61,206 nucleotides of DNA from Spirochaetia bacterium (GCA_035530395.1 DATKUX010000074.1:1-61206), one strand, 5' to 3'; positions 7,345 to 32,091 are shown, numbered from the stretch's first letter. Numbers and translations: made by a program. Notes: a model not told the origin generated them from the letters alone.

Positions 7345-7384
7345 GTGAGATAGATCTAAAACAGCAGGCGGTGGTATCAGACCT

Positions 7385-9993: not shown

Positions 9994-12014
9994 ATGGGCA
10001 TGCATTGTGACCAGTGTGAGCAGACGGCCAAGGGAACCGCCTGTACCATTGCGGGTGTCTGCGGCAAGAGTGCGGACGTGGCGGCGTTGCAGGATCTTCT
10101 CATCCACGCCGTGAAGGGTTTATCCCTGTATGCAACAGAAGCGCGCCGTCACGGCATCGTGGATCAGGAAATCAACGGCTTTACCGTGCAGGCCGTCTTT
10201 TCCACCGTAACCAACGTGGACTTCGACCCGGAGCGGTTTAAACCGATGATCGACCGGGCCGTCCAACTGAGGGAGCGACTGAAGGAAAAGGTAGCCGGGG
10301 CTGGGGGAACGGTAAATTTCCCGGATCCCGCGGCCAGCTTCCAACCCGCAGGCGATCTGGCCGGTCTGATCAAACAGGGAGACCCCGAGGATCTGATCGT
10401 CGACCAAACCGCCGGAGCGGACATCCAGTCCCTCCAGCGCATCCTGGTCTACGGCTTGAACCTCTCATGACCAAGGTCACGAGATTCCTGCTTCACGGAG
10501 CCAAGCCTTCCGAGGGAAGGTCTTACCGGCTCTCCACAGGCTATCCCCGCCGTTCCTGCGGTTACTTAGACGTTGCGCGGGCACGAGGGGGTTAGCCTGC
10601 CAGGATGCGCAGGCCCTCGGCCAAAAGGTTGATAGCTGCGTTACGGTCCCTATTGTGGATGTATTCCCGGATTGTTCCCTCGGTTCCCTCACCATCTGTC
10701 GGCACGAAGCAGGGCGGATTCCATACATGCCCGACTTGCAGAACAAGCAATATACCTAAGCGCGTCCCGTGCTTACTAGTATATCGTTCACCTTGTGCGT
10801 GCATTATACCATACGCGTGTTTCCGAAAGCAAGCCCTTTTTGCCATATTTGCTAAAATTAGGCCGGCGAATTCTGGGCCAGCAGGACGATGCCGTCTTCG
10901 CCTTTATCCACGAGGGCCTGGGAGCCCTCAGCAATAAGGAACTAACCCTTGATGACTGGGTCAAGCTGGTACTACGCTGCGGTGAGATCAACCTCCGCGT
11001 CCTGGAACTCCTGGATGCCGGTAACACCGGTGCCTTCGGTCACCCGGTACCTACAGAGGTACCGCTGGGCCACAAAAAAGGTAAATGCATCCTGGTGTCC
11101 GGGCATGACATCAAGGACCTGTCCGACCTCCTTACGCAAACCGCGGGGAAAGGAATCGACGTGTACACCCACGGCGAAATGCTGCCGGCCCACGGATACC
11201 CCGGGCTGAAAAAGCATCAGCACCTGTACGGTCATTTCGGTACAGCCTGGCAGAACCAGAAGAAGGAGTTTTCCGTCTTCCCGGGCTCCATCCTCATGAC
11301 CACCAACTGTATCCAGAAACCCGAAGAGTCCTACATGGGAAACATTTTCAGCACCGGCCTGGTTGGCTGGCCCGGCATGTAACCAACGGCCGGTTCGGAC
11401 CGGTCATCGAAAAGGCCCTGGCCATGCCCGGCTTTCCGGCGGACGAAGACCGGGGCAGTGTGATGGTGGGCTTTGCCCATAACGCCCTGTCCGGTGTGCT
11501 GGATAAGGTGGTCGACGCGGTAAAAAGCGGCGCCATCAAACACTTTTTCCTGGTAGCGGGGTGCGACGGCGCCAAGCCGGGACGCAACTATTTCACCGAA
11601 TTCGTGCAAAAAGTACCCCGGGATTCCGTGGTCCTGACCCTGGCCTGCGGTAAGTTCCGCTTCTTCGATTTGAAGATGGGGGATATCGGCGGCATTCCCC
11701 GGCTGATCGACATCGGCCAGTGCAACGACGCCTACTCGGCCGTCCAAGTGGCCCTGGCCCTGGCCCTGGCGAAAGCCTTCAACTGCGGGGTCAACGACCT
11801 GCCCCTTTCCCTGATCCTCTCCTGGTACGAGCAGAAAGCGGTGGCGATCCTGCTGAGCCTCCTGCACCTAGGTATCAGGGACATCCGCCTGGGCCCGAGC
11901 CTGCCGGCCTTCATATCGCCCGGTGTGTTGGATGTACTGGTCAAGAACTTCGCCATAAAGCCTATCACCACGGCGGATGAAGACCTGGCCGGCATTCTGC
12001 GGAAAGGCGCCTGA
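9994..12014 (+). pseudogene. hcp: hydroxylamine reductase / hybrid-cluster protein, disrupted (insertion plus frameshift)
   Basis: Three collinear Hcp fragments (9994-10470, ~10860-11382, 11424-12014). The N-terminal Cys cluster CDQCEQTAKGTAC...GVCGK and the C-terminal [15 protein letters not shown] and SWYEQKAV motifs are all present. They are interrupted by ~400 bp of foreign DNA and a 1-nt frame change near 11365-11380. Confidence 0.85.
10462..10866 (-). mobile_element. truncated IS200/IS605-family (IS1341-type) tnpB 3' remnant with structured right end
   Basis: Minus-strand ORF 10592-10846 ends ...YTSK...HNRDRNAAINLLAEGLRILAG, matching the TnpB/RuvC-III C-terminus. About 125 bp of hairpin-rich sequence lies 3' of it. 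Boundaries are approximate, and most of tnpB and all of tnpA are absent. Confidence 0.55.
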
Positions 12015-12608
12015 GGCTGTTAACGGGGTCCGGTGCTGGTCACCGGACTTGGAGCGTTGATCCCGGTCGGCCGGTTGCCAAAGTCAGATTTTCGTTCGTT
12101 CCATGAAGACGTCAAAATGAGAACCCTGTCTGAAAGCCCTCGCGCCATCGTTGTTAACGCTGGTGTAGAGTTGTATTTCCTTTATCCTGCGGCAGACGGA
12201 GCAGTTGCGCACTTCCTGCTACAGTTTCTTTCCCGTTTCCTTTCCCCGGTGGCGGGCTGAAACAACCAGGGTGGAATATGTCCGATTATGGCAGGGAGGA
12301 GGGGGGCATTTTCTCCAATATCACCCGCTTTTGGGCCGCAGGGCAGGGAAGAAGGTTGCTCCGTCAGCAATTGGCAAGTCAGTAATCTCTAAGCACGCAA
12401 CGCTTAATTTGCACCGTTTCTCAGATGTAATTCGTCATATAGATTTGATGGTCCTGCTCCTCTTTTGCCCCTTGATACCTGGTTGAGTGCCCTGTGCAGA
12501 TATCGCAGGGTAGTGGCGCAAGGCGATCGCACCCTTAGTTGGAATATTTTGCATGGATAAGGATATAATATTAATGTGCAAAATATTTTCCGGCAAAAGG
12601 AGGCCGCG

Positions 12609-13334
12609 ATGAGAAACTACAAGGGCTTAGTCTGGCTGGGAGTGTTGCTCCTTTTTCTCGGTCAGGCCGCGCCCGCGCTTGCGGCGGATATCGGTACATC
12701 CGCCGTATCCCTGATCGACGACGAGGTCGAAATGACCTATACGGTGCAGGCCGGCGACACGCTGTCCGGCATTGCCGGGCAGTTCGGAGTAACCCTGGAC
12801 AACCTCACAAACGCCAACAGACTGGACACCTACCTCATCCACCCCAATGACCTGTTGCTTATTCCGGGGCACTACGAGCCGGTTCCGGCGTTCGTCTCCC
12901 GGGGGGATGTGGATCGGTCCGATTTGACCCTGCTGGCCCACCTCATCTATGCCGAGGCGCGGGGCGAGCCGTTTTCCGGTCAGGTCGCGGTGGGTGCGGT
13001 GATCATAAACCGGCTGGCCAGTCCGGTATTTCCCAAAACCATCCGGGAAGTGATCATGCAGCACAGCGGCCGCTCGTACCAGTTTCAGCCGGTGTCCGAC
13101 GGGGCCATCGACCTGACACCGGACGCCACAGCGGTCCGGGCGGCCATCTCGGCCCTCAACGGGCGGGACCCCTCCCACGGTGCCCTCTATTTCTACAACC
13201 CGGCCCAGGCAGACGATTCCTGGATTCGCAGCCTGCCGGTGATTACCAGAATCGGCAACCACGTGTTCGCCACAGAGAGGTCCGCCGGCCGCGCCTTCTT
13301 CCCGGAAGGGGTGCCGGCGGACCTTCCGGCTTGA
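12609..13334 (+). CDS. sleB: spore cortex-lytic enzyme family protein (LysM + SleB-type cell-wall hydrolase domain)
   Basis: ATG 12609 after AAAGGAGG. Signal peptide, LysM (YTVQAGDTLSGIAGQFGV...LLIPG), Hydrolase_2 motifs LIYAEARGE and QFQPVSDG. Confidence 0.75.
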   Translation: MRNYKGLVWLGVLLLFLGQAAPALAADIGTSAVSLIDDEVEMTYTVQAGDTLSGIAGQFGVTLDNLTNANRLDTYLIHPNDLLLIPGHYEPVPAFVSRGDVDRSDLTLLAHLIYAEARGEPFSGQVAVGAVIINRLASPVFPKTIREVIMQHSGRSYQFQPVSDGAIDLTPDATAVRAAISALNGRDPSHGALYFYNPAQADDSWIRSLPVITRIGNHVFATERSAGRAFFPEGVPADLPA

Positions 13335-13581
13335 GGGGAGCTTCACCCCACCATTTACCCCGGTACGCTATTCCCCGGCCTTCAGTCATCATAATACTGT
13401 GTGAAGGTGGCACCACGCACCTGCCGTATCCTTCGCCTCTGCCGCACCGGGAATGATTGTTAGGTGCCGGGGGGGATAATATTTTTTGGCTGCCCGGAAG
13501 ATCCGCTGGTCCTTTCCGGGGCCCCATCGCCCGCCGGATCCCGGCAAGGGAGCGACCAGGATTTGTTTTGAAGGCTGGTTA

Positions 13582-15678
13582 ATGACCATGGCGACTACAG
13601 ATATTCACCTGCTGCACCGCCTGGCCCGGTTATACGGGGTGGAGGTTGGATTCAGGGACTATGCGGGCTGTTTTCGCCAGGCAACCCCACAGGCGCTCCT
13701 AGCGGCCCTGCAGGGGCTGGGCGCCCCCGTGCACTGCCTGGCCGACGTCACTGCGGGCTTGCGGGAGCGGACCAGGGAACAGTGGGAGCGCTGCTGTGAA
13801 CCGGTCGTTGTGGGCTGGCACGGGGCACCCCTCCATTTGGACCTGAGGTTGCCGGCGCACGCGGTCACCGCCGCCGAGTGCAGTTTGGAACTGGAAAATG
13901 GCGAGGTCCGGCGCCTGTTTCCGGACGTCGCCGATCTTCCGCTCCTGGCAGCCCGCGTGGTGGAAGGGATCCGGTACGAACACCGGCGGCTCCCGTTGCC
14001 CCCGGGGCTACCCCGGGGCTACCATCGTCTGCAGCTTTACCTGGGAAAGCACACGGCTCATGTTCTCATAATCGTCGCGCCGCGGTTCGCCCACGATCTG
14101 GCCGGGCCGGACCGGATCTGGGGGGCGTTTATGCCGCTGTATGCCCTTCATTCCCGCCGCTCCTGGGGCGCCGGAGATTATGCCGACCTGCGGGACCTGC
14201 TCGACTGGGCCGGTTCCCTGGGGGGGCGCCTAGTCGGCACCTTGCCGCTGTTGGCCGCCTTTCTGGACGAACCCTTGGTCCCCAGCCCGTACCAACCGGT
14301 GAGTCGTTTGTTTTGGAACGAGTTCTACCTGGACGTCGGCGCGGTGGAAGAAGCGGGCAGAAGTCCGGGCGCTCAAAGGTTGATGGAATCGCCGGAATTC
14401 CGCCGGGAGATAGCCGACCTCCAGGCCGCGCCGAGGGTGGACTATCGCCGGGGTATGGCGGTAAGGCGAGCGGTCCTGGAACACTGCGCCCAAACATGCT
14501 TTGCCGAAGAATCAGGGCGGTTATCCGCCTTACGGCGATGGGTGGCGGAAAACCCGGCCACCAGGGATTATGCCCGCTTTCGGGCCACCCTGGAAAAGCG
14601 GGGCACCGCCTGGACGGACTGGCCGGAGCGGATGCAAAACGGCCTTTTGGAGGAGGGAGACGGCGACCCGGCGGCGGAGCGCTACCACCTGTACGTGCAG
14701 TGGCTCACCAGCAGGCAATTGGGGAGTGTCTCCCTGCGGGCCCGGGAAAACGGTCAGATGCTCTATCTTGATTTGCCCCTGGGGGTTCACCCTGCCGGCT
14801 ATGACGCCTGGCGCGAGCGCGCTGCCTTCGTGCCGGGAATCAGCACCGGCGCCCCGCCGGATGCCTTTTTTGCCGAAGGGCAGGATTGGGAATTTCCACC
14901 CTTACACCCGGAGCGTATTCGGGAACAGGGGTACCGTTACTACATCGCCTGCCTGCGTAACCACCTCCGGTATGCCGGATTGTTGCGCTTGGATCACGTG
15001 GCCGGGCTGCACCGCCTCTTTTGGGTGCCTGCGGGCCTGCCGGCCAGTGAAGGGGTTTACGTGCGCTATAACGCCAAGGAATTCTACGCCGTTCTATGCC
15101 TGGAGTCCCAGCGTCACCAGGCGGTGATCGTGGGCGAGGACTTGGGTATCGTGCCCGGTTACGTCCGCCGGGCCATGGCCCGGCACCGGATCTACCGGAT
15201 GTATGTGTTACCCTTCGAGTTGTCCGGGACTCCCGGCGAGACGCTCCGCCCCATCCGTTCCCAGAGCCTGGCCACCCTAAATACCCACGATATGGCCCCG
15301 TTCGCCTCTTTCTGGCTGGATGAGAAAAAGAAGGGTGCAGGGGTGGCTTTGCCCCTTTTTCTGGCACGGCGGGGCCATCTGGCGGTCGCCACCAACCGGG
15401 TGACGTCCGTCCTGCAGGCCTGCCTGGCCCACCTGGCCGCCAGCCGGGCCGGGATCCTTCTGGTGAATCTGGAGGATCTGTGGCTGGAAAGAGCGCCTCA
15501 GAACGTACCCGGTACAACGGACCAACATCCCAACTGGCAACGGAAGGCCCGCTATGGTCTGGAAAAGATACGGGGATTGCCCGGAGTGGCGCCGGTGTTG
15601 CGGAAAATCAGCCGTTTGCGCAACGCCAGGCAGATATGGGGAATGCGCCGGGCCCAACGGGAGGGGGTAAAGAAGTAA
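13582..15678 (+). CDS. malQ: 4-alpha-glucanotransferase (GH77, amylomaltase)
   Basis: GH77 motifs: LRLDHVAGLHRLFWVP, VIVGEDLGIVP, TLNTHDMAP and the NVPGT region. Start chosen at ATG 13582; the track ORF has an implausible N-terminal extension. Confidence 0.8.
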   Translation: MTMATTDIHLLHRLARLYGVEVGFRDYAGCFRQATPQALLAALQGLGAPVHCLADVTAGLRERTREQWERCCEPVVVGWHGAPLHLDLRLPAHAVTAAECSLELENGEVRRLFPDVADLPLLAARVVEGIRYEHRRLPLPPGLPRGYHRLQLYLGKHTAHVLIIVAPRFAHDLAGPDRIWGAFMPLYALHSRRSWGAGDYADLRDLLDWAGSLGGRLVGTLPLLAAFLDEPLVPSPYQPVSRLFWNEFYLDVGAVEEAGRSPGAQRLMESPEFRREIADLQAAPRVDYRRGMAVRRAVLEHCAQTCFAEESGRLSALRRWVAENPATRDYARFRATLEKRGTAWTDWPERMQNGLLEEGDGDPAAERYHLYVQWLTSRQLGSVSLRARENGQMLYLDLPLGVHPAGYDAWRERAAFVPGISTGAPPDAFFAEGQDWEFPPLHPERIREQGYRYYIACLRNHLRYAGLLRLDHVAGLHRLFWVPAGLPASEGVYVRYNAKEFYAVLCLESQRHQAVIVGEDLGIVPGYVRRAMARHRIYRMYVLPFELSGTPGETLRPIRSQSLATLNTHDMAPFASFWLDEKKKGAGVALPLFLARRGHLAVATNRVTSVLQACLAHLAASRAGILLVNLEDLWLERAPQNVPGTTDQHPNWQRKARYGLEKIRGLPGVAPVLRKISRLRNARQIWGMRRAQREGVKK

Positions 15679-18116
15679 TGAGCCGTATGGAGCGTTACGT
15701 GTGTATTCACGGCCATTTTTATCAACCGCCGCGGGAAAACCCGTGGCTGGAGGAAGTCGAACTCCAGGACGGCGCCTATCCCTACCATGACTGGAACGCG
15801 AGGATAACCGCCGAATGCTATGAGCCCAACACCGTGTCGTGCATCCTCGCGGGCGATGGCTGGATTAGAAAGATCATCAACAACTACGCCAAAATAAGCT
15901 TCAATTTCGGGCCCACCCTGCTTTCCTGGCTGGAAAGGAACGAACCCGCCGTGTACCGGGCCGTAATAGGAGCCGACGTACAAAGCCGGGATAACTTCTC
16001 CGGTCACGGTTCGGCCTTGGCGCAGGCCTACAACCACATGATCATGCCCCTGGCCAACCACCGGGACAAAGTTACCCAGATCGTGTGGGGAATCAGGGAC
16101 TTTGAGTACCGTTTCGGGCGGCGCCCGGAGGGGATGTGGCTGCCGGAGACGGCTGTTGATCTGGAGACCCTGGACATCATGGCGGAGCAGGGCATCCGGT
16201 TTACCATCCTGTCTCCCTATCAGGCCAGGCGATTCCGCCCGGCCGGCGGGTGCGAGTGGCAGGAAGTGGCGGCCGGAGCCATTGATACGACCGTTGCTTA
16301 CGAGCTTCACCTCCCCGGGTCGGGGCGGACAATCACCCTTTTCTTTTACGACGGCGAAATATCCCGGGCGGTAGCCTTCGAAAGATTGCTCTCGGACGGA
16401 GAGCGCTTCGCTAAAAAGCTGTTGGCCGGCTTCGCGGAAGAGTACCCGTACCAACTGGTCAATATCGCCACCGATGGTGAGACTTACGGTCACCATCACC
16501 GGCACGGCGACATGGCCCTGGCCTACGCCCTGGATTACATCGAAGCCAACCAGTTGGCCCGGCTCACGAACTACGCGGAATACCTGCAGCTACACCCGCC
16601 TACCCATGAGGTGGAGGTGTACCCAAACAGCGCGTGGAGTTGCGCGCACGGGGTCGAGCGCTGGCAGAGCGACTGCGGTTGCAACTCAGGGCTGCACCCC
16701 GGTTGGAACCAGGCCTGGCGAGCTCCTTTGCGCACGGCCTTGGACTGGCTCCGGGACAGTATAGGTTCCCGGTACGAGGATTTGGCCCGCCATTTTCTCA
16801 AAGACCCCTGGGAGGCACGTGACGAATACATCGCTGTGATTCTGGACCGGTCCGGAGAGAGTTGCGAACGATTTCTGGCGCGGCACGCGGCGGGGGAACC
16901 AGACGCGGACCAGCGGATCACGGTTTGGAAACTGCTGGAGTTGCAAAGACACGCAATGTTGATGTACACCAGTTGCGGCTGGTTCTTCGATGATATTTCC
17001 GGGATTGAAACGGTCCAGGTGATCAAGTACGCCGGGAGGGTCATCCAGTTAGCCGGGGAACTTTTCGCCACGGACTTGGAACCCCGCTTTCTGGAGATGC
17101 TGGCCCTGGCCAAAAGCAACGTTCCCCGGTACGGGGATGGTGCCCAAATCTACGGAAAGTCCGTCAAACCGGCCATGGTCGATTTACCAAAGTTGGGCGC
17201 CCATTACGCCATATGTTCATTGTTTGATGCGTATGACGAGGACTCCCGCATCTATTGCTACCGGGTAAAGCGGTTGGACAAAGAAGACCGGCTGGCGGGA
17301 GCGGCCAAGATGACGGCCGGACGGGCCCTGGTTACTTCGGAGATCACCGGGGAGTGGGCCAGCCTGAGTTACGGGGCGGTTTACCTGGGTAGCCCCGACG
17401 CCAACGCCGGGGTCGGCTTCTACCGGAATGAAGATGCCTATCAGCAGATGATACAAGATCTGACGGGCGCTTTCGAACGGGCCGACTTTGCCGAGGTTAT
17501 CCGCTTTCTGGACCAGCACTTCGGCGGGGCTACCTATTCCCTGAAGCAGCTTTTTCGGGACAAACAGCGGTTGGTCCTGGGCCAGATTCTGGACGCCGCC
17601 CTGGCCGAGGCGGCCGGGGCTTACCGGCGGATTTACGAGCACCGCGCGCCCCTGATGCGGTTTCTGAAGGACTTGAACATACCTCAGCCCAGAGTCCTTT
17701 TCACCGCGGCCGAGATCGTTCTTAACGCCAACCTCCGCATGGCCTTTCTGGAAGACCCGCCGGACATCAATCTCATCAACGCCCTGCTGGGCGAGGTCGA
17801 CATTACCGATGTGGTGCTCGACGGCACCATCCTCGCCTACGTTTTGGAGCAGACCCTGAAGCGGATGGGGGAGCGATGGCTTGGTCACCCCGCCGACGAG
17901 GCGCAGCTTGCCCATCTGGACGATGTAGTAGGATTGGCCCGCGCCCTGCCCTTCGAGGTGGACCTGTGGAAGGTGCAGAACATCTATTACAGGCTGATGC
18001 AGACGGTGTACCCCGGCTTCCGGAACAGCGCGGGGAATGGGGATGAGGAAGCCCGGCTGTGGCTCGGCCGGTTCAACGACCTCGGGAATAAATTGCGGGT
18101 GCGGAGGAATGAGTAG
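15678..18116 (+). CDS. glycoside hydrolase family 57 protein with C-terminal DUF3536-like region
   Basis: ATG 15678 overlaps the malQ stop (TAATG). N-terminus YVCIHGHFYQPPRENPW and the ATDGETYGHHH motif are typical of GH57. Confidence 0.8.
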   Translation: MSRMERYVCIHGHFYQPPRENPWLEEVELQDGAYPYHDWNARITAECYEPNTVSCILAGDGWIRKIINNYAKISFNFGPTLLSWLERNEPAVYRAVIGADVQSRDNFSGHGSALAQAYNHMIMPLANHRDKVTQIVWGIRDFEYRFGRRPEGMWLPETAVDLETLDIMAEQGIRFTILSPYQARRFRPAGGCEWQEVAAGAIDTTVAYELHLPGSGRTITLFFYDGEISRAVAFERLLSDGERFAKKLLAGFAEEYPYQLVNIATDGETYGHHHRHGDMALAYALDYIEANQLARLTNYAEYLQLHPPTHEVEVYPNSAWSCAHGVERWQSDCGCNSGLHPGWNQAWRAPLRTALDWLRDSIGSRYEDLARHFLKDPWEARDEYIAVILDRSGESCERFLARHAAGEPDADQRITVWKLLELQRHAMLMYTSCGWFFDDISGIETVQVIKYAGRVIQLAGELFATDLEPRFLEMLALAKSNVPRYGDGAQIYGKSVKPAMVDLPKLGAHYAICSLFDAYDEDSRIYCYRVKRLDKEDRLAGAAKMTAGRALVTSEITGEWASLSYGAVYLGSPDANAGVGFYRNEDAYQQMIQDLTGAFERADFAEVIRFLDQHFGGATYSLKQLFRDKQRLVLGQILDAALAEAAGAYRRIYEHRAPLMRFLKDLNIPQPRVLFTAAEIVLNANLRMAFLEDPPDINLINALLGEVDITDVVLDGTILAYVLEQTLKRMGERWLGHPADEAQLAHLDDVVGLARALPFEVDLWKVQNIYYRLMQTVYPGFRNSAGNGDEEARLWLGRFNDLGNKLRVRRNE

Positions 18117-18122
18117 CGTAGC

Positions 18123-18692
18123 CTACGAACGGAAGATATCATTGGTATCCATGCCGAACCCGGCCAGCACTTTGGATTCCACCCGGGCATGCTCGCCGGC
18201 TTTTTGATCGGTCACCAGCCTGCCTTCGGCCCATACAAATATCTCGATGGTTTTACCTGCAGGTTCAATTATCCAGTATTCCAGAACACCATATTTCTCA
18301 TATGCCGCAAACTTCTCTCCCAGGTCGAAACGCGCCGTAGTCGGGGACAGGATTTCCACCACCAGGTCGGGGGCGCCTTCGATCCTTTTCTTTTGGAGGA
18401 TCCCTTTTCTATCGTTGGAGACGAAGACGATGTCCGGTTGATAAGTTTCGTGCTCGTCCAGGTAAACGTCGGTGGGAGGAAAGAAGATTTCCCCGCAGCG
18501 GTGACTATCAACAAATGCCCCCATGTGTAGGACCAGTCTCCTGGATATCCTCTGGTGGTAGAGTACCGGCGCAGGGGTCAAGACGAGTTCGCCTCCAATC
18601 AGTTGGTACGGAGCGCCCTCGGGCAATTCGGCATAGTCCTCGTATGTTAATTTCTTTTTGTATGGCAATGCTGTTTCCCTGATTTCCTCCAC
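18123..18692 (-). CDS. Uma2-family (DUF820) restriction-endonuclease-fold protein
   Basis: YQLIGGELVLTPAP...HQ...PDIVFV...APDLVVEILSP...D...K...Y...GVLEYWII matches the Uma2 PD-(D/E)xK pattern. Confidence 0.8.
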   Translation of the reverse strand: MEEIRETALPYKKKLTYEDYAELPEGAPYQLIGGELVLTPAPVLYHQRISRRLVLHMGAFVDSHRCGEIFFPPTDVYLDEHETYQPDIVFVSNDRKGILQKKRIEGAPDLVVEILSPTTARFDLGEKFAAYEKYGVLEYWIIEPAGKTIEIFVWAEGRLVTDQKAGEHARVESKVLAGFGMDTNDIFRS

Positions 18693-18826
18693 GGCTCAAC
18701 CCTCACTTTGACAGATCTTCCATGTAACCTGGTTGATTATGCCATTAATAGGATCATACCGCGTGAGTCAGGTTTAGTCAACGCCGCGGCCCCGGTCTGC
18801 CGCCCTTGAAAGTAATCGCAGGCTCC

Positions 18827-18856
18827 TTGACAAACGACCCTTCCGGTGGCTATAAT
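18827..18856 (+). promoter_or_regulatory. consensus SigA-type promoter (TTGACA-N18-TATAAT)
   Basis: Perfect -35 TTGACA (18827-18832) and -10 TATAAT (18851-18856), directly upstream of the brnT remnant and brnA. Confidence 0.6.
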
Positions 18857-18877
18857 GGTGTTGCTTGTAACTACAAA

Positions 18878-19100
18878 TGGAGTTATAAGAAGCCCTCCGC
18901 CCTGCCAAGGCATGGGCTGGACTCCGTTAATGCGGAGGAGATGTAGGGCTCGGTGTTTGTCCATCCCGCCCGCAGGCGCGACTAAGGGTTGGGCGAACGG
19001 GGGGTATGGCGTGGGCCGTACGGCCGCTGGTCGGGTAATTTTGAGGAGAAAGGCGATACAACGTGAGCGAGAAACCTCCGTCCGAGCCGTCACCGGCTGA
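18878..19100 (+). pseudogene. brnT: BrnT-like (DUF497) toxin remnant with in-frame stop and frameshift
   Basis: The frame from 18878 reads WSYKKPSALPRHGLDSVNAEEM then TAG (18944-18946); compare the BrnT N-terminal W-x3-K-x6-KHG(L/V)-F-EEA pattern. A second frame ends ...GRVILRRKAIQRERE, BrnT C-terminus-like. No start codon is retained. Confidence 0.5.
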
Positions 19101-19320
19101 CTGCGTAAAAGTGTTTAGTAAGCCCGACACTGAGGTCTCAGATAACCCCCAGGGGGGTAAGGAGTTCTGGACCAAGGCTGTGCGCTGGCCGGTCCCGAAG
19201 CAGCAGATCACGCTTCGGCTGGATGCGGACGTACTGGACTTCTTCAGGAAGCAGGGGAGGGGCTACCAGACGGCGATCAATGCCGTGTTGCGTCAGTATA
19301 TGAAGGCTCATCAGCGTTAG
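19063..19320 (+). CDS. brnA: BrnA-family antitoxin
   Basis: C-terminal ITLRLDADVLDFFRKQGRGYQTAINAVLRQYMKA is the BrnA signature. Confidence 0.75.
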   Translation: MSEKPPSEPSPADCVKVFSKPDTEVSDNPQGGKEFWTKAVRWPVPKQQITLRLDADVLDFFRKQGRGYQTAINAVLRQYMKAHQR

Positions 19321-19452
19321 TACGGTGAAGTTAGGTGTCCGTCATGCCCGATTGAGCGAATCCGATCCAGAGACTCCCGGACGCCGGGGGTGGCCCGGCA
19401 GTTGGAACGGAACAAAGGGGAATAAATTGCAATTAGAAAGCGGGCCGTTAAT

Positions 19453-19635
19453 ATGAGTATTGTTGTGGATAATATGAGGTGCCCCCAAAACCATTCTTGC
19501 CCATCCGTTAGGATATGTCCTGTTGGAGCATTGAAACAGGAAGGGTATAAAGCACCTGCCGTAGATATGGATAAGTGCATTGAATGTGAACAATGTGTCT
19601 CGTTTTGCCCGATGAAAGCTATTAAAAGCCGTTAG
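19453..19635 (+). CDS. small 4Fe-4S ferredoxin-domain protein
   Basis: CPxxxxCPSVRICP and CIECEQCVSFCP cluster motifs in an AT-rich patch. Confidence 0.6.
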   Translation: MSIVVDNMRCPQNHSCPSVRICPVGALKQEGYKAPAVDMDKCIECEQCVSFCPMKAIKSR

Positions 19636-20050
19636 TAGATGTAGATAATTCAGTCCGGATAAGAGCCCCGGAGCCGGCCAATTGCCCGGTGTCCGGGGCC
19701 TTCATTTGCCCCCCTGCACAACTCCTTCCGGGGCGCTGGGCCGGGCTGATATTGACGAGTCTTTTTGCCTATAGGCTGCAGGCATGCTGGCAACCTGGGC
19801 CCGGGTCGCGGGCAGGTCAGGTCGAAACGTATCGTCCGGGAAGCCCCCAAGGATTCCCTCAGCCACATCCAGGGACAGCGGGCCCTGACACCAGGAAGGT
19901 ATGGCTGCCGAAGACAGGCTGAGGATGTACTCCTGGCCAAGGAGCCGGTGATCTCGTTGAAAACGCTACGTATATCTAAGAAAGGAATCTCTTTAACAGT
20001 CTATTAAAGAGATTCCTGGCCATTTTGATGTAGGGGTAATCTCGCCCCAC

Positions 20051-20641
20051 ATGTTTTATTCGCTACACATAGAATATTCAGCTAGTCAAAGACGGCTTTC
20101 TTCTTCGCTGCTTGAGTCTTTCTGCGAAATAAGACAAGCGCAAAAGAACAATATACCTTGCCTATGGTATAATGAGTTGTGGGCTAAAGAATTCGAAGAT
20201 TTTATTGGTAGGCTTGTTGCCCATAACGAGCCTACTTCGATTATTGAAAGTCCTAGAAGAGACAATTGCCCAATCCTTTCCCCATGCTGAATTAGCGATA
20301 GAAAATCGTCATGGCACAAGATATCCAAAACCTTCCTAATCTCGAAGTTATCTACTATTGAGTCGCTAGTAGACAGAATTAGGCAGCTTGACCTTAAGCT
20401 CAAGCTGGTTGTTGATATACCTCCACTCTTTTCGGCCCATTATCTCTCGGAAAACAATATGCCTGCAGGTAAAATTAGAAGGCTTCTCGAACCCCTCAAG
20501 GAATATCGCGATAGTATTTCCGGTATTCATATTTTGGGAAGGAAGAAGGCGGGCAAAAATATGGTTGCTCACGTAGGAACCCTAGACGATTTAGTTGGCA
20601 ACAATAAGGAATTAAAGACCGCATTTCTAGCAGGCCTATGA
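20051..20641 (+). pseudogene. possible frameshifted gene of unknown function (two ORF fragments) at the left edge of the AT-rich islet
   Basis: ORF 20051-20290 and an open frame ~20300-20641 lie in different frames. There is a weak ELAIENRHG (TIM-barrel isomerase/endonuclease-like) motif at the junction. Family not recognised. Confidence 0.25.
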
Positions 20642-21076
20642 ATTCTTCGACGATGAGAAACCTCGTTATTTTGCTCCGGAGGTTAACAGCTCAGGAGGGG
20701 ATTGCTTGTTAACCATACATGATTTTCTAAATATGGTTTCAACTTTAACCAGTCGTAAGACCTAAACCCTGTGGCCCTCTTAACTATACCGAGACCTTGC
20801 AATGTGTTCTCCTGTAGGTGCGGTCGCGCGGCAGCTAGATCCTGAATTCCTGAAACATCTCAGGCCGATGGTGATATCTCTATTGTGGGGTTTCCTTGGC
20901 TCCGGTCATGGGCCGTTGAGGGGTGGGGCGTAGCTATAGACTATATGAGGTTTAGCTGGATGATCATTCCCTGGAATGACTATCCTAAAATGTACATATA
21001 AGTACGTGTTTGGAGAAGTAGGTTAAGGCAATCGTAGTCAAATCAATCTATAATGGCATAAGGAGCAGAGCGCTTT

Positions 21077-21442
21077 ATGAAGGATAGCAGTTACACTATA
21101 AATTGCCTCAAGGATATTGTCAAGGTATTTTGCGAAGAAAGGGATTGGGACAAATTCCACAATCCTAAGGATTTGGCTATTGGTATTGTTACTGAAGCGT
21201 CCGAGGTGATAGAGCACTTTCGCTTCAAGTCGCTAGAAGAGATAGAAACAATGTTTAGTGATAAAGATAAAAAACAGGAGATTGCCGAAGAGCTAAGTGA
21301 TGTATTGTTTTTCGTGTTAAGATTTGCACAGATGTACAATATTGATTTAAGTGCTGAATTTCTTGCAAAGATCGAGAAAAATCAAGCAAGATACCCTGTT
21401 GTAAAATGTAAAGGGTCGAACAAAAAGTATACGGAGGCTTAA
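21077..21442 (+). CDS. MazG-like nucleoside triphosphate pyrophosphohydrolase (dCTPase/DCTPP1-like, all-alpha NTP-PPase)
   Basis: ERDWDKFHNPKDLAIGIVTEASEVIEHF...EELSDVLFFVLRFA...EKNQARYP matches the MazG/DCTPP1 EExxE/D core. RBS AAGGAG is present. AT-rich. Confidence 0.75.
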   Translation: MKDSSYTINCLKDIVKVFCEERDWDKFHNPKDLAIGIVTEASEVIEHFRFKSLEEIETMFSDKDKKQEIAEELSDVLFFVLRFAQMYNIDLSAEFLAKIEKNQARYPVVKCKGSNKKYTEA

Positions 21443-21447
21443 CTTTA

Positions 21448-23322
21448 ATGAGGCTTTATGTTGGTACTTCTGAACAATTTATACAGGACAACGTCTTAAA
21501 TCAAATTGCAGAAAAATTAAAAAATACTTTTTTCGGTTATTATAGGTACTATCCCTCGCCATCAGAAGTTAGTTCCTGGAGGAACTCTTTAAGAACTATG
21601 TCGCAAATGATACAATATGCAGATCTTTTGGATAACGGTGTCATCCTAGAGTATCAGCTACCGTTGACATCAAAGAGACTGGACTGTCTGATTTCGGGAA
21701 GAGATACAGATAGCAATGATTCCGCAGTTATAGTCGAGCTCAAACAATGGGAGGGGTGTCAAGAATCTAATGGTGAAAACGAGGTTGTCACGTGGATTGG
21801 TGGGCATTACCGAGATGTGCTTCATCCCTCTGTTCAAGTAGGACAATATAATATGTACTTGCAGGATACCCATACTGCGTTTTACGAAGGTGAAAACCCT
21901 GTTCGACTCAATTCATGCACATATTTACACAATTACAACTATTACTCAGATGATGTCATTTTCTCTAGAAAATTTACGGATGCTCTGCAAAAATACCCAC
22001 TTTTTACGGCCGATGATGTGCCGTCTTTTAAGACATATCTCAGTGACAAACTTTCCATGGGTAATGGAATGGAAGTTCTTAATAGAATTGAGAAAGGCGA
22101 ATACCGTCCGAGTAAAAAGCTGATGGAGCATATTGGTAATACGATAAAAGGTAAATCAGAATATATTTTACTCGACGAGCAATTGGTCGTGTACGATAAA
22201 GTATTGGCCTGTGTAAAAGATGGCTTTCACGACAAGCAAAAGGCTGTCTTTATAATTAAAGGTGGGCCAGGGACAGGCAAATCCGTAATTGCTTTGAACC
22301 TGGTCGCAGATTTATTGCTTTCCGGCTACAATGCGCACTATGCCACCGGCTCAAAGGCGTTTACGGAAACGCTGAGGAAAATAATGGGGACAAGGAGTCC
22401 AACTCAGTTTAAGTATTTTAACAGTTACTCACAATGTGCTATTAACGAAATAGATGTGCTAATATGCGACGAGGCTCACAGAATTAGAGAGTCGAGTAAT
22501 AGCTTCTACACTCCAAAAGGCAGTAAGTCCAATATTGCTCAAATCCAAGAAATACTTAAGGCCGCTAAGTCAAGTGTCTTTTTTATCGACGACGCCCAGG
22601 TAGTTAGGCCTAATGAAGTTGGCTCGGTTCAATATATTAAGCATCATGCCGATACACTCAAATGTAGGGTTCTTGAATACGAATTGGAGGCCCAATTTAG
22701 ATGTAGTGGCTCCGACGGCTTTGTTAATTGGGTAGACAACACTTTGGGGATAAGGAGGACTGCTAACATCCTTTGGAATCAAAAAGAGGAATCGTTTGAT
22801 TTAAAGATCATGGGTTCTCCTGAAATGTTAGAAGATGCGATTAGAGAAATGGCCGAAAATGGGTTTACCGCAAGGATGACGGCAGGATTCTGCTGGCGAT
22901 GGTCAAAAACGTTGACGCCTGAGGGAAGGTTGCACAATGATGTTGTGGTTGGTAACTATGCGCGTCCGTGGAACGCACATCCAGACGCTACCGGGCTTCC
23001 GAGGAATATTCCCAAGGCGTCATATTGGGCCTATGACCATAATGGAATTGGTCAAGTAGGATGTGTTTATACGGCACAAGGGTTTGAGTTCGATTATGTT
23101 GGTGTAATTGTTGGTAATGACCTAAAGTACAGCTTTGAGGCCAATGAGTGGCAGGGGTTTCCGGAAAAATCGTATGATACTACGGTAAAGCGTTCTAAGG
23201 ATCAGTTTGTTGACCTAGTAAAGAATACATATCGGGTTCTTTTTACAAGAGGCCTCAAAGGATGCTATGTATATTTTATGGATAAGGATTCTGAGAGATT
23301 CTTTCGAAGTCGGATGGAGTAA
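21448..23322 (+). CDS. DUF2075-family protein: N-terminal PD-(D/E)xK-like nuclease module + SF1 helicase-like P-loop ATPase
   Basis: RLDCLISG...AVIVELKQW (D...ExK), Walker A GGPGTGKS, Walker B VLICDEAHR, C-terminal YTAQGFEFDYVGVI. Starts 6 nt after the MazG stop, so likely operonic. Confidence 0.8.
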   Translation: MRLYVGTSEQFIQDNVLNQIAEKLKNTFFGYYRYYPSPSEVSSWRNSLRTMSQMIQYADLLDNGVILEYQLPLTSKRLDCLISGRDTDSNDSAVIVELKQWEGCQESNGENEVVTWIGGHYRDVLHPSVQVGQYNMYLQDTHTAFYEGENPVRLNSCTYLHNYNYYSDDVIFSRKFTDALQKYPLFTADDVPSFKTYLSDKLSMGNGMEVLNRIEKGEYRPSKKLMEHIGNTIKGKSEYILLDEQLVVYDKVLACVKDGFHDKQKAVFIIKGGPGTGKSVIALNLVADLLLSGYNAHYATGSKAFTETLRKIMGTRSPTQFKYFNSYSQCAINEIDVLICDEAHRIRESSNSFYTPKGSKSNIAQIQEILKAAKSSVFFIDDAQVVRPNEVGSVQYIKHHADTLKCRVLEYELEAQFRCSGSDGFVNWVDNTLGIRRTANILWNQKEESFDLKIMGSPEMLEDAIREMAENGFTARMTAGFCWRWSKTLTPEGRLHNDVVVGNYARPWNAHPDATGLPRNIPKASYWAYDHNGIGQVGCVYTAQGFEFDYVGVIVGNDLKYSFEANEWQGFPEKSYDTTVKRSKDQFVDLVKNTYRVLFTRGLKGCYVYFMDKDSERFFRSRME

Positions 23323-23766
23323 GACGGGCGGAGATAGGATTGGATGGCTGATCAAGATAAGTGGTCAGTACTCTGAAGGCCCTATGAGATCACAAAATTA
23401 GGATTTGATAAGAGACTTATAGCTATCAATGATTCCGCTGCGAAAAGTACGATTTTCCCGAAGGACATCCCAAGTATAGTGGCGCGCATTCACCTGGACC
23501 CCTATAGGGGGTATCCGCCGCGTGAGCGAAGGGGTTTTCGCAGTAGAATCATCAATATTCCCCACTTGGTTTTTTGCGTTCAATAGCCTGGATATTAGAA
23601 TTTTGCTAGTAATAAGAGGTAAAAAATTATTGCCGGGGTCTCTGGGTTAAAAGGATAGATCCAGGAATCCTCCTCCTGGAGAGCGGTAGAGATGGTCTTC
23701 CCGGTTCATGTCAATCATGAAGAGAACTCTGGAACTAGCCAATGGCAAGGTTTCAAGGGTTCGGTT

Positions 23767-23898
23767 GTGGTCTGCATGTTGGTCTGCATGGGGGCCTATT
23801 TTTGGTCTGCCGATTGGTCTGCATAGTACCGGAAACCCGCAGAAACACAGGGTTCCTTGCGGAACCCTGTCTAGCCACTCCCTATGTATTTGGTCTGC
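23767..23898. repeat. five direct copies of a 9-bp motif (T/G)TGGTCTGC (GCAGACCAA on the tRNA strand)
   Basis: Copies at 23767-75, 23779-87, 23802-10, 23814-22 and 23890-98, plus hairpin CAGGGTTCC/GGAACCCTG at ~23849-23869. All lie immediately 3' of tRNA-Pro. Confidence 0.8.
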
Positions 23899-23945
23899 TA
23901 TGTAAATGTAAGAAGCCTTGATTCTCAAGGCTTCCCGGATTCGCT

Positions 23946-24023
23946 TGGTCGGGATGACAGGACTTGAACCTGCGACCTCACGGTCCCGAACCGTGCGCTC
24001 TAGCCAAACTGAGCTACATCCCG
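23946..24023 (-). tRNA. tRNA-Pro (anticodon CGG), CCA encoded
   Basis: Reverse complement CGGGATGTAGCTCAGTTTGGCTAGAGCGCACGGTTCGGGACCGTGAGGTCGCAGGTTCAAGTCCTGTCATCCCGACCA folds as a cloverleaf (7-bp acceptor, D, anticodon loop TTCGGGA, TPsiC GGTTCAAGT). A hairpin follows at ~23912-23934. Confidence 0.9.
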
Positions 24024-24126
24024 GTGAGATAGTTGTCTCGGCTCCTCTAACATTATGCCTCAGACTGGGGTAGAAAGTCAAGCCGCAACCGCCGGGAATC
24101 GACCCGGACATAATCGGTAACCGGGG

Positions 24127-24807
24127 TCAGCCGTCGATTTCCCTATCCGTAATCTTCCGTGCCAAGTCATAAACCAGCCTGGCCGTTATTCCCCAGATGA
24201 CCCCTTTTTCCGTCCTATAGACAAGGATATTGTGCCTCCGGCCATGCCAGGGTTCGGTGTACTTGGCGGGCAGTCCCAATTCCCGGGCCGGCAGGAGGAC
24301 GACTTCCTTACCGGTCTCCTCATCGAAGTAAGAAGGGTGGATTTCTATATCCACCTCATATCCCTCCGGCAGGGTATGGAGAAAATAAGATACGGGAACT
24401 GTGAAGATAGACTCTACTTCGAGCGGGTTGACCTTCAGTTCTTTCAGGTTACCGATACGGGCGACTCCTACGAAGGCGTCCACAGTGGTGCCCATCGGCG
24501 CCACCATTGTATCCAACACACCGATAATATCTAGCTTGTCCGCAGTAATGCCAAGCTCTTCAGCCGTTTCGCGGACTGCTGTCTCCTGGAAATCAGCGTC
24601 TTGTTTTTCATCGTATTCCCCGCCGGGAAAACAAATTTCACCGCCCTGTCTTATGGCGGAGGCTCTTTTCTCGAACAGAAAGTGATATTCTCCGCCGATG
24701 GGGACGAGCAACACCAACACAGCCGAATTGAAATACTCGTCCTTGCCGTGAATGCCTGGGGTTTTCGGTAATTTATCTTTGATTTCGTCCAATAAATCCC
24801 TTTTCAT
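24127..24807 (-). CDS. NUDIX hydrolase (CoA pyrophosphatase-like)
   Basis: Nudix box GGEICFPGGEYDEKQDADFQETAVRETAEELG. Start chosen at ATG 24807 (MKRDLLDE). Confidence 0.75.
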   Translation of the reverse strand: MKRDLLDEIKDKLPKTPGIHGKDEYFNSAVLVLLVPIGGEYHFLFEKRASAIRQGGEICFPGGEYDEKQDADFQETAVRETAEELGITADKLDIIGVLDTMVAPMGTTVDAFVGVARIGNLKELKVNPLEVESIFTVPVSYFLHTLPEGYEVDIEIHPSYFDEETGKEVVLLPARELGLPAKYTEPWHGRRHNILVYRTEKGVIWGITARLVYDLARKITDREIDG

Positions 24808-24887
24808 GAGCCAGCCACCTGTCCTACGGCCAAATCGTATCACCCGGCATTAGTTTTCCCGCAAAAGTATTCTTTCCCGGGCCCGGC

Positions 24888-26111
24888 TCAACCGCCGGCA
24901 TAGTAGGCCAGTACCTTTTTGACGGCCTGGATGACAGCATCGACATCTTCTTCCTGCATAGCCGGATAGATCGGCAGGCTGATCAGGTTGGCGTAAGCCT
25001 CTTCGGTGTGGACGAAGGGGTTCTCCAGGGCACAGAACTCCGGGTGACCGATCCAGCGCTGATAGGGATGGCGAAATACGGGGAGGTAATGCACGTCGAG
25101 CGAGATGTTTTCCGCCCGGACGGCCTCAAAAATCTCCCGGCGGCCGGCCTTGAGGCGGGATGCAACCAGGCGTACCGGGTAGAGGTAATGGGCATCGCCG
25201 GTCGCCGGGGTCCGGGGGGGCAGGATCAGCGGCTCATCCCGGAAGGCTTCGTCGTAACGGGCGGCGATTGCACCCCGTCGGGACAGAAAATCGCCGGCCC
25301 GCTCCATCTGGCTGGCGCCCAGGGCCGCCTCCAAAGGACCGAGGCGATAGCTGAAGCCCAGGTCCTGCATTTCCCGGTGCCAGGGGCCTTCGTTCGCCAC
25401 CAGGCCGGCCGGGTCTTCCACTAGCCCGAGGTTGCGGAAAAGCCGCAGCCAGTCGGCCAGGTCGGCCCGGTCGGTTACCACCGCCCCGCCTTCCCCGGTG
25501 CAGACCCCCTGACGGTGATGAAAGCCGAGGCAGGAGATCTCGCCGAAGGAGCCGGCCGGGTGACCGTTATAGGTGGCTCCCAGAGCCTGGGTGGCGTCCT
25601 CGATCAGGGTCAGGTTGCGGCGGGCCGCCAGTTCGGCGATAGCATCCATATCACAGGGACGGCCGGCGTAGTGAAAAGCAATGACCGCCTTGCTGCGTTC
25701 GGTGAGGACCTGTTCGACCGCGGCCGGATCCATGGTAAGGGTCCGCGGGTCGACGTCGGCGAAGATGGGGACGGCCCCCATGTAGAGAACGGCGTTGGCG
25801 GCCGCCGGTGGAGCCAGGGGCGACAGCACGACCTCTTCCTGGGGTCCGATGGCGGCCGCGGCCAAGGCCAGATGCAGGGCGGCGGTCCCGCTGGCGACAG
25901 CTACCGCGTAGCGCCGGCCGGTGTAGGCGGCCAGTTTCTCCTCTAACATGTCCAGCCATGGCTGGACCACGAGATCTCCCTGCAGGGCCTGCTGCACCAT
26001 TGCTGTGTCCTTTACGTTGAGCGATGGACGGGCAAAAGGCAACAATTCGGGGCGGACCGGCCGGCCACCGGCTATAGCGGGCGTGGTGTCTCCTTGCGGC
26101 ATCACTGCCAT
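24888..26111 (-). CDS. DegT/DnrJ/EryC1/StrS-family PLP-dependent sugar aminotransferase
   Basis: Family-typical AVASGTAALHLAL, LIEDATQALGA and SFHHRQ regions. Confidence 0.8.
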   Translation of the reverse strand: MAVMPQGDTTPAIAGGRPVRPELLPFARPSLNVKDTAMVQQALQGDLVVQPWLDMLEEKLAAYTGRRYAVAVASGTAALHLALAAAAIGPQEEVVLSPLAPPAAANAVLYMGAVPIFADVDPRTLTMDPAAVEQVLTERSKAVIAFHYAGRPCDMDAIAELAARRNLTLIEDATQALGATYNGHPAGSFGEISCLGFHHRQGVCTGEGGAVVTDRADLADWLRLFRNLGLVEDPAGLVANEGPWHREMQDLGFSYRLGPLEAALGASQMERAGDFLSRRGAIAARYDEAFRDEPLILPPRTPATGDAHYLYPVRLVASRLKAGRREIFEAVRAENISLDVHYLPVFRHPYQRWIGHPEFCALENPFVHTEEAYANLISLPIYPAMQEEDVDAVIQAVKKVLAYYAGG

Positions 26112-30993: not shown

Positions 30994-31257
30994 TCCCGCC
31001 GACCTGCTGCTTAGGTGGCTGGCGTGGGAGAGGTGTAGACACTCAGCGAATTGTTTTCGGGGATAATCACCTGCTTAGGAGAGTTGCAACAGGGGTTCTT
31101 GCCCTTTTGGCAAAATCTTGTTATGATGCTTAGAGAAGCAGCGAGTGGTCGAGTGGAACGTCCAAACCAGACACTAACCACAGGGAAGTTCGGGGGGAGT
31201 TGGTCTGCGAACCCAAATGGCAGGCGTTCCTATTCGTTTTTTCGAGGTGGTTCTTTT

Positions 31258-32091
31258 ATGCCGACCGCTATGGCCCTCGACGAACTGGCGATATCCTTCG
31301 ACGAGCAAGCTCTCGTTCGTCTATGCGAGACCTACGGCATCGCCGAGTTGTCCTTTTTCGGCTCCGTCACACGAGATGACTTCAACCCGGTCCGGAGCGA
31401 CGTGGACGTCCTGATCGAGTTCCTGCCGGACACCCCGGTGAGAACCCTATTCATGGACCAGTTCAGCTGGTTTGCATTGAGGAGAGACTTTGTAGCGTTG
31501 TTCCGCCGCAAAGTAGACATCGTGGAAAAAGAAGGGCTCGATAAGTATATCAAAGACGATGTCCTCCGTAGACGCGTGGTCGTCTACCAGTCTTCTGGCA
31601 ATGGGGGGGGGCTGGTCATACCTAAGCGCAGGGGAACAACGAAAGACTCCTCCGGTCAAACACCGGAGTGGGCCAAGGGTGTCCACGCTTTCGTCGAGAT
31701 CGATGGTACAGCAGCCGGGAAAATCAAGAAACCTGATTTATACCTTTTTCACATGCGGGATAATTGTAAACTGCTTCTAAAATCTGCAGCTAGCTTGACT
31801 TATGAAGATTTTCTCGAGAGGGATGAAATGTGGCGGCGGGGAGTAAGTAAATGTATAGAAGAGATCGGTGAGAATGCGGGTAAATTAAGCCATTCATTTA
31901 GGAAAAACCATCCTGAGATTCACTGGGATAAATATATCGAATCCAGACAGCATCTGGCTCACGTTTACGAACACGTTAAAATGTATACGGTTTGGACCAC
32001 AGTGACAGAAGAAATACCTGGGTTGCTTGCCGGCCTCGAAGCACTGATCCAGGACGTCGTAAACACCACCCCGGAGGGGACCCGGGAATAA
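31258..32091 (+). CDS. single ORF fusing a MntA-type nucleotidyltransferase to a HepT (DUF86) RNase domain
   Basis: ATG 31258 after GAGGTGG. NTase motif FGSVTRDDFNPVRSDVDVLIEF. ~50-aa linker starting at the G9 tract (31603-31611). C-terminal DUF86 with RQHLAHVY (Rx4HxY). GC content drops visibly from ~31700. Confidence 0.65.
   Translation: MPTAMALDELAISFDEQALVRLCETYGIAELSFFGSVTRDDFNPVRSDVDVLIEFLPDTPVRTLFMDQFSWFALRRDFVALFRRKVDIVEKEGLDKYIKDDVLRRRVVVYQSSGNGGGLVIPKRRGTTKDSSGQTPEWAKGVHAFVEIDGTAAGKIKKPDLYLFHMRDNCKLLLKSAASLTYEDFLERDEMWRRGVSKCIEEIGENAGKLSHSFRKNHPEIHWDKYIESRQHLAHVYEHVKMYTVWTTVTEEIPGLLAGLEALIQDVVNTTPEGTRE

Follow-up and report, generated by a model that had tools for sequence, protein, structure and literature searches.

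The stretch of DNA considered here, referred to throughout as the window, comprises 61,206 nucleotides (nt) from a Spirochaetia bacterium (GCA_035530395.1 DATKUX010000074.1:1-61206), with all positions counted from its first letter. Our subject is a pair of adjacent genes on its plus strand, predicted to encode a MazG-like deoxynucleoside triphosphate (dNTP) pyrophosphatase and a nuclease-helicase, which recurs across many bacterial and archaeal phyla and is a candidate anti-phage cassette. The genes, and the domains recognised within the second of them, are as follows:

21077-21442, plus strand: gene 1, a DCTPP1/RS21-C6-type all-alpha (MazG-like) dNTP pyrophosphatase of 121 amino acids (aa), assigned by Pfam and alignment
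21448-23322, plus strand: gene 2, a putative Nhi-like nuclease-helicase of 624 aa, assigned by Pfam and Nhi-like homology
21448-22152, plus strand: N-terminal domain of gene 2 (aa 1-235) with a PD-(D/E)xK-type motif, assigned by invariant residues
22240-23283, plus strand: DUF2075 / Schlafen-group-3 superfamily 1 (SF1) helicase domain of gene 2 (aa 265-612), assigned by Pfam (PF09848, SLFN-g3_helicase, 8e-87)

Gene 1 had been called a DCTPP1/MazG-type enzyme in a first-pass annotation of this DNA, and that identity is borne out: the protein matches the Pfam MazG-like family PF12643 with 42 bits (cutoff 27, E 1e-10), and aligns gap-free to residues 32-143 of mouse and human DCTPP1 (RS21-C6; E 5e-18). 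The predicted metal ligands E40 (21194), E43 (21203), E72 (21290) and D75 (21299) correspond to E63, E66, E95 and D98 of DCTPP1; these ExxE...ExxD ligands are at least 95% conserved across 120 homologues, and the pocket aromatics W24, F50 and F79 are conserved or conservatively replaced relative to DCTPP1. Gene 1 thus probably encodes an active enzyme, with a base preference that is unproven. An AGGAG ribosome-binding site precedes it, a promoter scan found no strong sigma-70-like promoter upstream, and PADLOC v2 returned no real match to the protein.

Gene 2 begins after a gap of 5 nt according to the open reading frame (ORF) coordinates, and not the 6 nt given earlier; in many relatives the two genes overlap by 4 nt. 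A GGAGG ribosome-binding site is positioned 8-9 nt upstream of it. Within the helicase domain, the Walker A motif GGPGTGKS (aa 272-279, 22261-22284) and the DEAH motif (aa 341-344, 22468-22479) are invariant in homologues, as are the nuclease-type residues E68, D79 (21682-21684) and E97-L-K99 (21736-21738, 21742-21744) of the N-terminal domain. Modelled alone with AlphaFold2 (AF2), the N-terminal domain reaches a predicted local distance difference test score (pLDDT) of 84.7, with helices and strands in the order expected of such a nuclease, helix-strand-strand-strand-helix-strand. The AF2 model of whole gene 2 is poor (pLDDT 59.8) and matches mostly helicases, with SLFN11, RecD2 and Dda as the top folds; sequence and profile searches of the PDB with gene 2 gave nothing useful. 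The nuclease assignment is therefore founded on motif and homology, and structure is not its basis.

That homology leads to a validated phage defence. Nhi-like (Millman et al. 2022) is an anti-phage protein that protects as a single-gene construct, with an N-terminal nuclease followed by DUF2075, and phages escape it through loss of a DNA methylase (bioRxiv 10.1101/2022.08.27.505566). Our comparison used the first 399 of the 611 residues of Nhi-like from B. cereus FSL H8-0482, taken from the Millman 2022 supplement. Against this sequence, gene 2 aligns by BLASTP over residues 4-345 (E 3e-6), and by hhalign over residues 4-397 with a probability of 95.4% and an E of 1.7e-8, collinearly along ~390 residues, and the nuclease motifs fall in register (RRPD...IECK in Nhi-like, RLD...VELK in gene 2). 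The resemblance to Nhi-like suggested by the first-pass annotation is thus upheld by collinear alignment, on which gene 2 is a distant homologue of Nhi-like with the same predicted architecture.

Both the family and its partnership with MazG extend far beyond the window. At a threshold of E <= 1e-10 the relatives of gene 2 number more than 8000; the best 120 of these are 65-84% identical to it despite belonging to Omnitrophota, Chloroflexota, Auribacterota and other phyla, and identity between phyla is 65-70%. Among 185,579 species-representative genomes (one per GTDB species), relatives occupy at least 574 loci, of which we sampled 80, drawn from many bacterial phyla as well as Methanosarcina, Thermoplasmata, Thaumarchaeota and Woesearchaeota, and searched them with a profile built from MazG homologues. 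A MazG-like gene lies close to the gene 2 relative in 55 of the 80, so the proposed linkage of the two genes recurs in other genomes, and the same profile gave 0 matches in 375 kb of unrelated control loci. In 43 of the 80 the MazG-like gene is directly upstream on the same strand, at a gap of -4 to +28 nt; elsewhere it stands upstream at 1.2-2 kb (3 loci), directly downstream (~7 loci, mostly in Actinobacteria), or in divergent (1) or convergent (1) orientation. It is also directly upstream in all three distinct metagenome or genome contexts that we looked up. Where relatives are at least 54% identical, linkage stands at ~85%; at lower identity it is about half to 60%. Even DUF2075 homologues that are only 25-37% identical take part in the pair, which also occurs on a Priestia plasmid, in a Microcystis phage record and on IMG/VR contigs. 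Altogether, 4 viral or phage records have the MazG-like gene next to the helicase gene.

In viral collections the pair is rare compared with the at least 574 loci in species-representative genomes: it was found in 4 of 2.9 million viral contigs and in 4 phage records. One such record, Microcystis phage Mwe-JY31 (PP438423.1; L127), is a 22-kb sequence deposited as a phage, with all of its genes, including the pair, annotated as hypothetical. Other arrangements were seen where MazG is not adjacent. In five loci (L011, L062, L029 and others) the product of the gene directly upstream of the helicase is ~288 aa long and contains an HExxH motif (AHECGH); it has no Pfam or PADLOC match and may be an alternative partner of the helicase. 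On a Hymenobacter canadensis plasmid (NZ_CP114769.1; L126), a DNA methyltransferase and a DUF4747 gene are followed downstream by two tandem DUF2075 paralogues, without MazG.

The neighbours of the pair in other genomes are typical defence genes. Among them are genes for SIR2 and a reverse transcriptase, with recombinases on either side, AbiL-type AAA_21/RloB genes, and, on a plasmid, type I restriction-modification (RM) and ABC-three-component genes; same-strand upstream genes matched the PADLOC models HNH, RmrA, CapP, AbiLi, AriA, MkoA/C (Mokosh), PD-Lambda-2, DpdJ, HEC-01 and PDC-S05. The only recurrent neighbours besides MazG are modification-dependent endonucleases, encoded beside the pair in 19 of 83 loci and usually in the same operon. 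One group of 309-aa neighbours (12 loci) is a full-length match to the EVE-HNH enzyme VcaM4I (PDB 6YEX, E 8e-37), and the activity of VcaM4I depends on 5-methylcytosine (5mC) or 5-hydroxymethylcytosine (5hmC) (PMC7897488). A further group, probably SRA-HNH, follows gene 2 relatives fused to an S24 domain, its SRA match being weak (E 1.3e-4) and under the Pfam threshold; DUF3427 / type IV enzymes lie near the pair in 4 loci, and on the Priestia plasmid the gene order is MrcB_N-HNH, MazG, DUF2075. The presence of DUF2075 genes beside McaZI-type enzymes had already been noted (Lutz et al. 2019).

The S24 fusions hint at regulation. A C-terminal LexA/UmuD-like S24 domain is present in approximately half of the close gene 2 homologues (P0007, P0022, P0041, P0052 and P0099, for example) and in 14 of the 80 genome loci (among them L005, L006, L007 and L048), and is absent from the window copy. 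These tails retain an Ala-Gly or Cys-Gly cleavage site together with the Ser and Lys catalytic residues, which suggests that the fused forms may be controlled by RecA-coated single-stranded DNA via self-cleavage. In one homologue (P0058) a helix-turn-helix (HTH) domain takes the place of S24. Some operons come after a gene for an HTH regulator and one for an M78/CapP-like protease, which points to the same kind of control; the window copy has neither.

What, then, is the unit that moves? In the nearest relatives (L086-L089), 80% nucleotide identity to the window is confined to 21095-23325, that is, to the two coding sequences, and the cassettes are flanked by NifU/nitrilase/YchF genes on one side and TauE/HflX genes on the other, no tRNA being present; the guanine-cytosine (GC) fraction of the L087 module is 0.41, inside a background of 0.64-0.67. 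The 1.1 kb upstream and 0.6 kb downstream of the pair in the window are common to no related locus. Since the shared identity is limited to both coding sequences, and the insert is again of low GC elsewhere, the gene pair itself is the mobile unit. The region is accordingly not conserved core sequence: the nearest relatives hold only these two genes, in another neighbourhood. In the window, GC measured in 500-nt bins falls from 0.54 (19500-19999) to 0.41 (20000-20499), reaches a minimum of 0.36 (21250-21749) and stays at 0.42-0.45 until 23749. This delimits a low-GC islet from ~19980 to ~23900, with flanks of ~0.61 (1-18000) and 0.58 (25000 to the end) and 0.406 for the two-gene module, and confirms the sharp fall, with low values up to tRNA-Pro, on which the first-pass annotation had remarked. 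From composition and flanks we conclude that the pair moves as a unit and is, on this evidence, a horizontally acquired low-GC cassette. Both genes are under purifying selection: relative to the nearest relative, the ratio of non-synonymous to synonymous substitution rates (dN/dS) is 0.13 for the MazG gene and 0.05 for the helicase-nuclease gene, with both domains of the latter alike (N-terminal 0.048), and the window copy therefore appears functional. Low-GC 1-kb bins (0.47-0.52 against a background of 0.58-0.62) also occur elsewhere in the window, at 31001-32000, 55001-57000 and 60001-61206.

The cassette is bordered in the window by these features:

18123-18692, minus strand: Uma2-family endonuclease, matching the PADLOC single-gene defence candidate PDC-S03 (E 2e-40) and phrog_16228
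19063-19320, plus strand: BrnA-type antitoxin, assigned by Pfam, with no recognisable BrnT toxin gene upstream
19983-19996 / 20004-20017, no strand: perfect inverted repeat with a 14-bp stem and a 7-nt loop, at the left compositional break
20021-20641, plus strand: pseudogene, the remnant of an uncharacterised ~290-aa family without a Pfam model, recognised by homologue alignment
23323-23909, no strand: AT-rich non-coding spacer (GC 0.47), not common to the sister cassettes
~23910-23937, minus strand: hairpin with a U-rich tail directly 3' of tRNA-Pro, found by folding
23946-24023, minus strand: intact tRNA-Pro(CGG) with encoded CCA (Rfam, 66 bits)

The hairpin at the left edge had been described earlier as perfect, with 13 bp; it is indeed perfect, and its stem is 14 bp long. 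Its folding energy is -18 to -19.5 kcal/mol (z -2.8 and -4.6), it is unique in the window, with its arm found nowhere else there, and it looks like a terminator because UUUCUU comes after it on the minus strand. On the right, the hairpin at 23910-23937 is probably the terminator of tRNA-Pro itself, which would therefore set the native right boundary there. In the spacer between the cassette and this terminator, the decamer TGGTCTGCAT occurs four times at 23765-23824, one copy being degenerate, with spacings of 12, 23 and 12 nt. An Rfam scan for non-coding RNA (E <= 1, 18000-25000) gave the tRNA alone, and promoter and terminator scans yielded no more sites than in shuffled sequence.

The location next to a tRNA gene was counted in the first-pass annotation among the features that fit a horizontally acquired islet. 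The adjacency is real. It carries little weight as evidence of an island, since there is no integrase, no attachment-site (att) repeat, and sister cassettes are not at tRNAs. The ORF and Pfam scan found no integrase or recombinase gene between 18117 and 24023, as had been reported, and a search for a direct repeat of the tRNA 3' end gave only an 18-nt, 83% match in inverted orientation. We also sought an empty site in metagenome contigs, taking the NUDIX protein of the flank as query: the best match had 57% identity, no locus had a tRNA or synteny, and no close relative of the host organism turned up.

Upstream of the pair, what had been taken for a frameshifted gene at 20051-20641 is in fact a single frame from 20021 that is interrupted by one in-frame TGA (20288-20290), carries an internal deletion and is truncated at both ends, and its family is unrelated to the cassette. 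A 289-aa protein matches it through residues 27-251 (38% identity, E 1e-42), and no word-sharing homologue was found for the first 79 codons of the pseudogene. We considered the pseudogene as a decayed third component and rejected this, as it has no similarity to any neighbour in 83 related loci and the contexts of its family differ. Intact members of the family (L133, L137) lie near a serine recombinase, an HTH protein, a DEAD helicase, RadC and AddA, or, in another context, with an EVE protein and an Eco57I/MmeI-type RM enzyme, with no MazG/DUF2075 pair nearby; the family may represent a further accessory or defence-island gene. Further upstream, the moderately low-GC stretch 18117-19979 (0.545) holds the Uma2 endonuclease and BrnA genes, and so the whole interval from the GH57 gene to the tRNA looks like a small variable region. 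In the sequence upstream of BrnA (18693-19075), the three forward frames contain stops or lack a family match, and the BrnA locus may be an orphan or a decayed toxin-antitoxin pair.

Taking these observations together, the reading that we favour, and in which we have moderate confidence, is that of a horizontally mobile two-gene anti-phage (or anti-mobile-element) cassette. The earlier proposal of an acquired defence islet has thus withstood both computational checks that could have overturned it, that of linkage and that of core conservation, with corrections to the pseudogene, to the weight of the tRNA and to the nuclease fold. That the pair restricts phages or other invading DNA seems likely from its homology and company: the helicase-nuclease would translocate on and cut the DNA of the invader or its replication intermediates. 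More tentatively, we posit that the target could be DNA with modified cytosines (5mC, 5hmC and derivatives), considering the substrate range of DCTPP1, the escape of phages from Nhi-like through methylase loss, and the recurrent operons with 5mC/5hmC-dependent nucleases. DCTPP1 prefers dCTP and 5-methyl/5-halo dCTP, and lowers cellular 5-methyl-dCTP and DNA methylation (PMC4491611). In such a scheme, MazG would hydrolyse modified dCTPs and thereby deprive the phage of a protective nucleotide; it would also prevent the modified base from entering host chromosomal DNA, such that the nuclease and neighbouring modification-dependent endonucleases would spare self DNA.

Several observations weigh against this interpretation, in whole or in part. 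A quarter to a third of relatives depart from the two-gene form: 25 of the 80 sampled relatives have no nearby MazG-like gene, and because Nhi-like, too, works as a single gene, a MazG partner is not universally required. The distances of MazG and helicase correlate weakly (Mantel r 0.16 across 53 paired loci from L001-L084 plus the window), with some helicases at 43% identity accompanied by MazG at 60%, and some helicases at 69% by MazG at 35%. We had expected a strong co-phylogeny, which was not borne out; this argues against a tight co-evolving complex, and a shared pathway fits better. It seems that the MazG partner is exchanged between cassettes whilst adjacency is kept. In gene 1, the cytosine-contacting His38 of DCTPP1 is replaced by Val15, and hence cytosine specificity is not assured. 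As for gene 2, identity to Nhi-like is only 20%, and PADLOC v2 matches are partial (PDC-S41 3e-16, AbiO 1.6e-14, Nhi 3.6e-13), that to the Nhi model covering gene 2 residues 236-418 only (model positions 178-329 of 470), in the first lobe of the helicase. The earlier description of gene 2 as a nuclease-helicase stands as far as D79/ELK99, Walker A and DEAH are concerned; the nuclease fold is unconfirmed, with no significant match in the PDB or in BFVD (viral models) and a top PDB match for the N-terminal domain, the PD-(D/E)xK nuclease EndoMS, that is marginal (E 0.036, TM 0.30). Finally, the window itself contains no modified-base reader (EVE, SRA, DUF3427 or MrcB_N) and no modification-dependent endonuclease.

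The same two genes could be read in other ways. Perhaps the roles are reversed, such that the helicase-nuclease is a sensor of phage replication intermediates and MazG is the effector, draining canonical dCTP (or some other dNTP) so that phage DNA synthesis stops, in a nucleotide-depletion or abortive-infection response akin to those of dCTP deaminase and dGTPase. DCTPP1 also hydrolyses canonical dCTP, the metal ligands of MazG are intact and invariant, the operon coupling is tight, and DefensePredictor places the MazG domain among its predicted, unvalidated defence domains (PMC13092281). We nevertheless consider this unlikely: with an invariant nuclease motif and an N-terminal dN/dS of 0.048, the large protein is hardly a mere sensor; an obvious regulatory domain that could silence a dCTPase is missing from small tetrameric MazG enzymes; and the recurrent link to modified-cytosine-dependent endonucleases would be left unexplained. 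A role in DNA damage or repair, in which the helicase-nuclease processes stalled forks or lesions and MazG sanitises the dNTP pool as a fitness factor on mobile DNA, would account for the many homologues with an S24 fusion complete with cleavage site, Ser and Lys, for the HTH and M78/CapP-like protease genes ahead of some operons, and for the closest fold being that of the SLFN11 helicase, which acts in response to single-stranded DNA where forks are under stress. House-cleaning is, moreover, the classical role of MazG. Yet CapP-like and LexA-like switches also serve defence systems, and a patchy cross-domain distribution with 65-70% identity between phyla, the foreign composition, the residence of the pair within defence islands beside type IV restriction enzymes, and the homology of gene 2 to a validated defence protein all make a repair module quite unlikely.

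Overlapping stop and start codons in an operon with the small gene first recall toxin-antitoxin pairs, and with copies on plasmids and a BrnA antitoxin gene nearby in the window, one could imagine an addiction pair without an anti-phage role, in which MazG neutralises a toxic nuclease-helicase directly, or removes its activating nucleotide, and so stabilises the mobile DNA that carries them. This strikes us as improbable, as gene order is reversed in several lineages, the MazG gene is missing from 25 of the 80 loci, the partners do not co-evolve, which would be unusual for a binding antitoxin, and MazG retains a full catalytic site. The least probable of these readings, to which we give very little credence, is that the window copy is inert, left over from an old insertion and in decay just as the truncated and interrupted pseudogene beside it is. 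The absence of mobility genes and of a strong sigma-70-like promoter upstream of gene 1 would agree with decay; full-length ORFs with all invariant residues, Shine-Dalgarno sequences before both genes, and dN/dS values of 0.05-0.13 against the nearest relative would not.

Returning to the anti-phage cassette, the pair is probably an undescribed two-part variant of Nhi-like phage defence. As a system it is not modelled in PADLOC v2, and our literature search found no paper that connects DUF2075, Nhi or modification-dependent restriction to MazG or a pyrophosphohydrolase. Should it be a defence, it would represent a two-component Nhi-like form with an added nucleotide-pool enzyme, in a cassette that is both compact (2.25 kb) and common across many bacterial and archaeal phyla. 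The idea of a modified-cytosine target offers a falsifiable route by which hypermodified phage DNA might be attacked without self-harm, and the LexA-like fusions a tractable case in which the RecA signal feeds directly into an immune effector. At its most speculative, and we regard this as a doubtful though attractive possibility, there could be a widespread bacterial and archaeal module in which a DCTPP1-like enzyme polices modified dCTP for a Schlafen-type helicase-nuclease, excluding cytosine-replacing phages and protecting the host chromosome, with RecA-switched sister forms. If this were true, DCTPP1 and the SLFN11-type helicase, members of eukaryotic genome-guardian families, would have prokaryotic relatives that cooperate in immunity.

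It is instructive to set the pair beside the systems it most resembles. Eukaryotic DCTPP1 shares all four acidic ligands and the pocket aromatics with gene 1, but is a housekeeping enzyme without a helicase partner, whereas gene 1, whose substrate is a prediction, is paired. In human SLFN11, a group III Schlafen protein, the helicase domain is of the same Pfam family (PF09848) and provides the best fold match for the whole gene 2 model; unlike SLFN11, gene 2 has no Schlafen RNase domain, and the Schlafen defences so far described from bacteria involve this RNase domain, not a DUF2075-type helicase. The dCTP deaminase and dGTPase nucleotide-depletion defences likewise encode a dNTP-pool enzyme as a part of immunity, but of another enzyme family and chemistry, as single genes and without a nuclease-helicase partner. 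Type IV restriction enzymes (EVE-HNH VcaM4I, SRA-HNH, DUF3427 and MrcB_N-HNH), frequent neighbours of the pair in the same operon elsewhere, carry modified-base readers, whereas the MazG/DUF2075 pair has no recognisable reader domain. Nhi of S. epidermidis (SERP2475; Bari et al. 2022), which is reported to target phage replication and is escaped via the phage single-stranded-DNA-binding protein, shares with AbiO and gene 2 the nuclease-helicase concept and a helicase core overlapping DUF2075, but the N-terminal domains of Nhi and AbiO are unmatched by gene 2. Closest of all is Nhi-like, with the same order of an N-terminal D...ExK nuclease-type domain and then a DUF2075 SF1 helicase; yet whilst Nhi-like acts alone, the clade to which the window copy belongs has a conserved MazG partner and, in many of its members, a C-terminal S24 domain.

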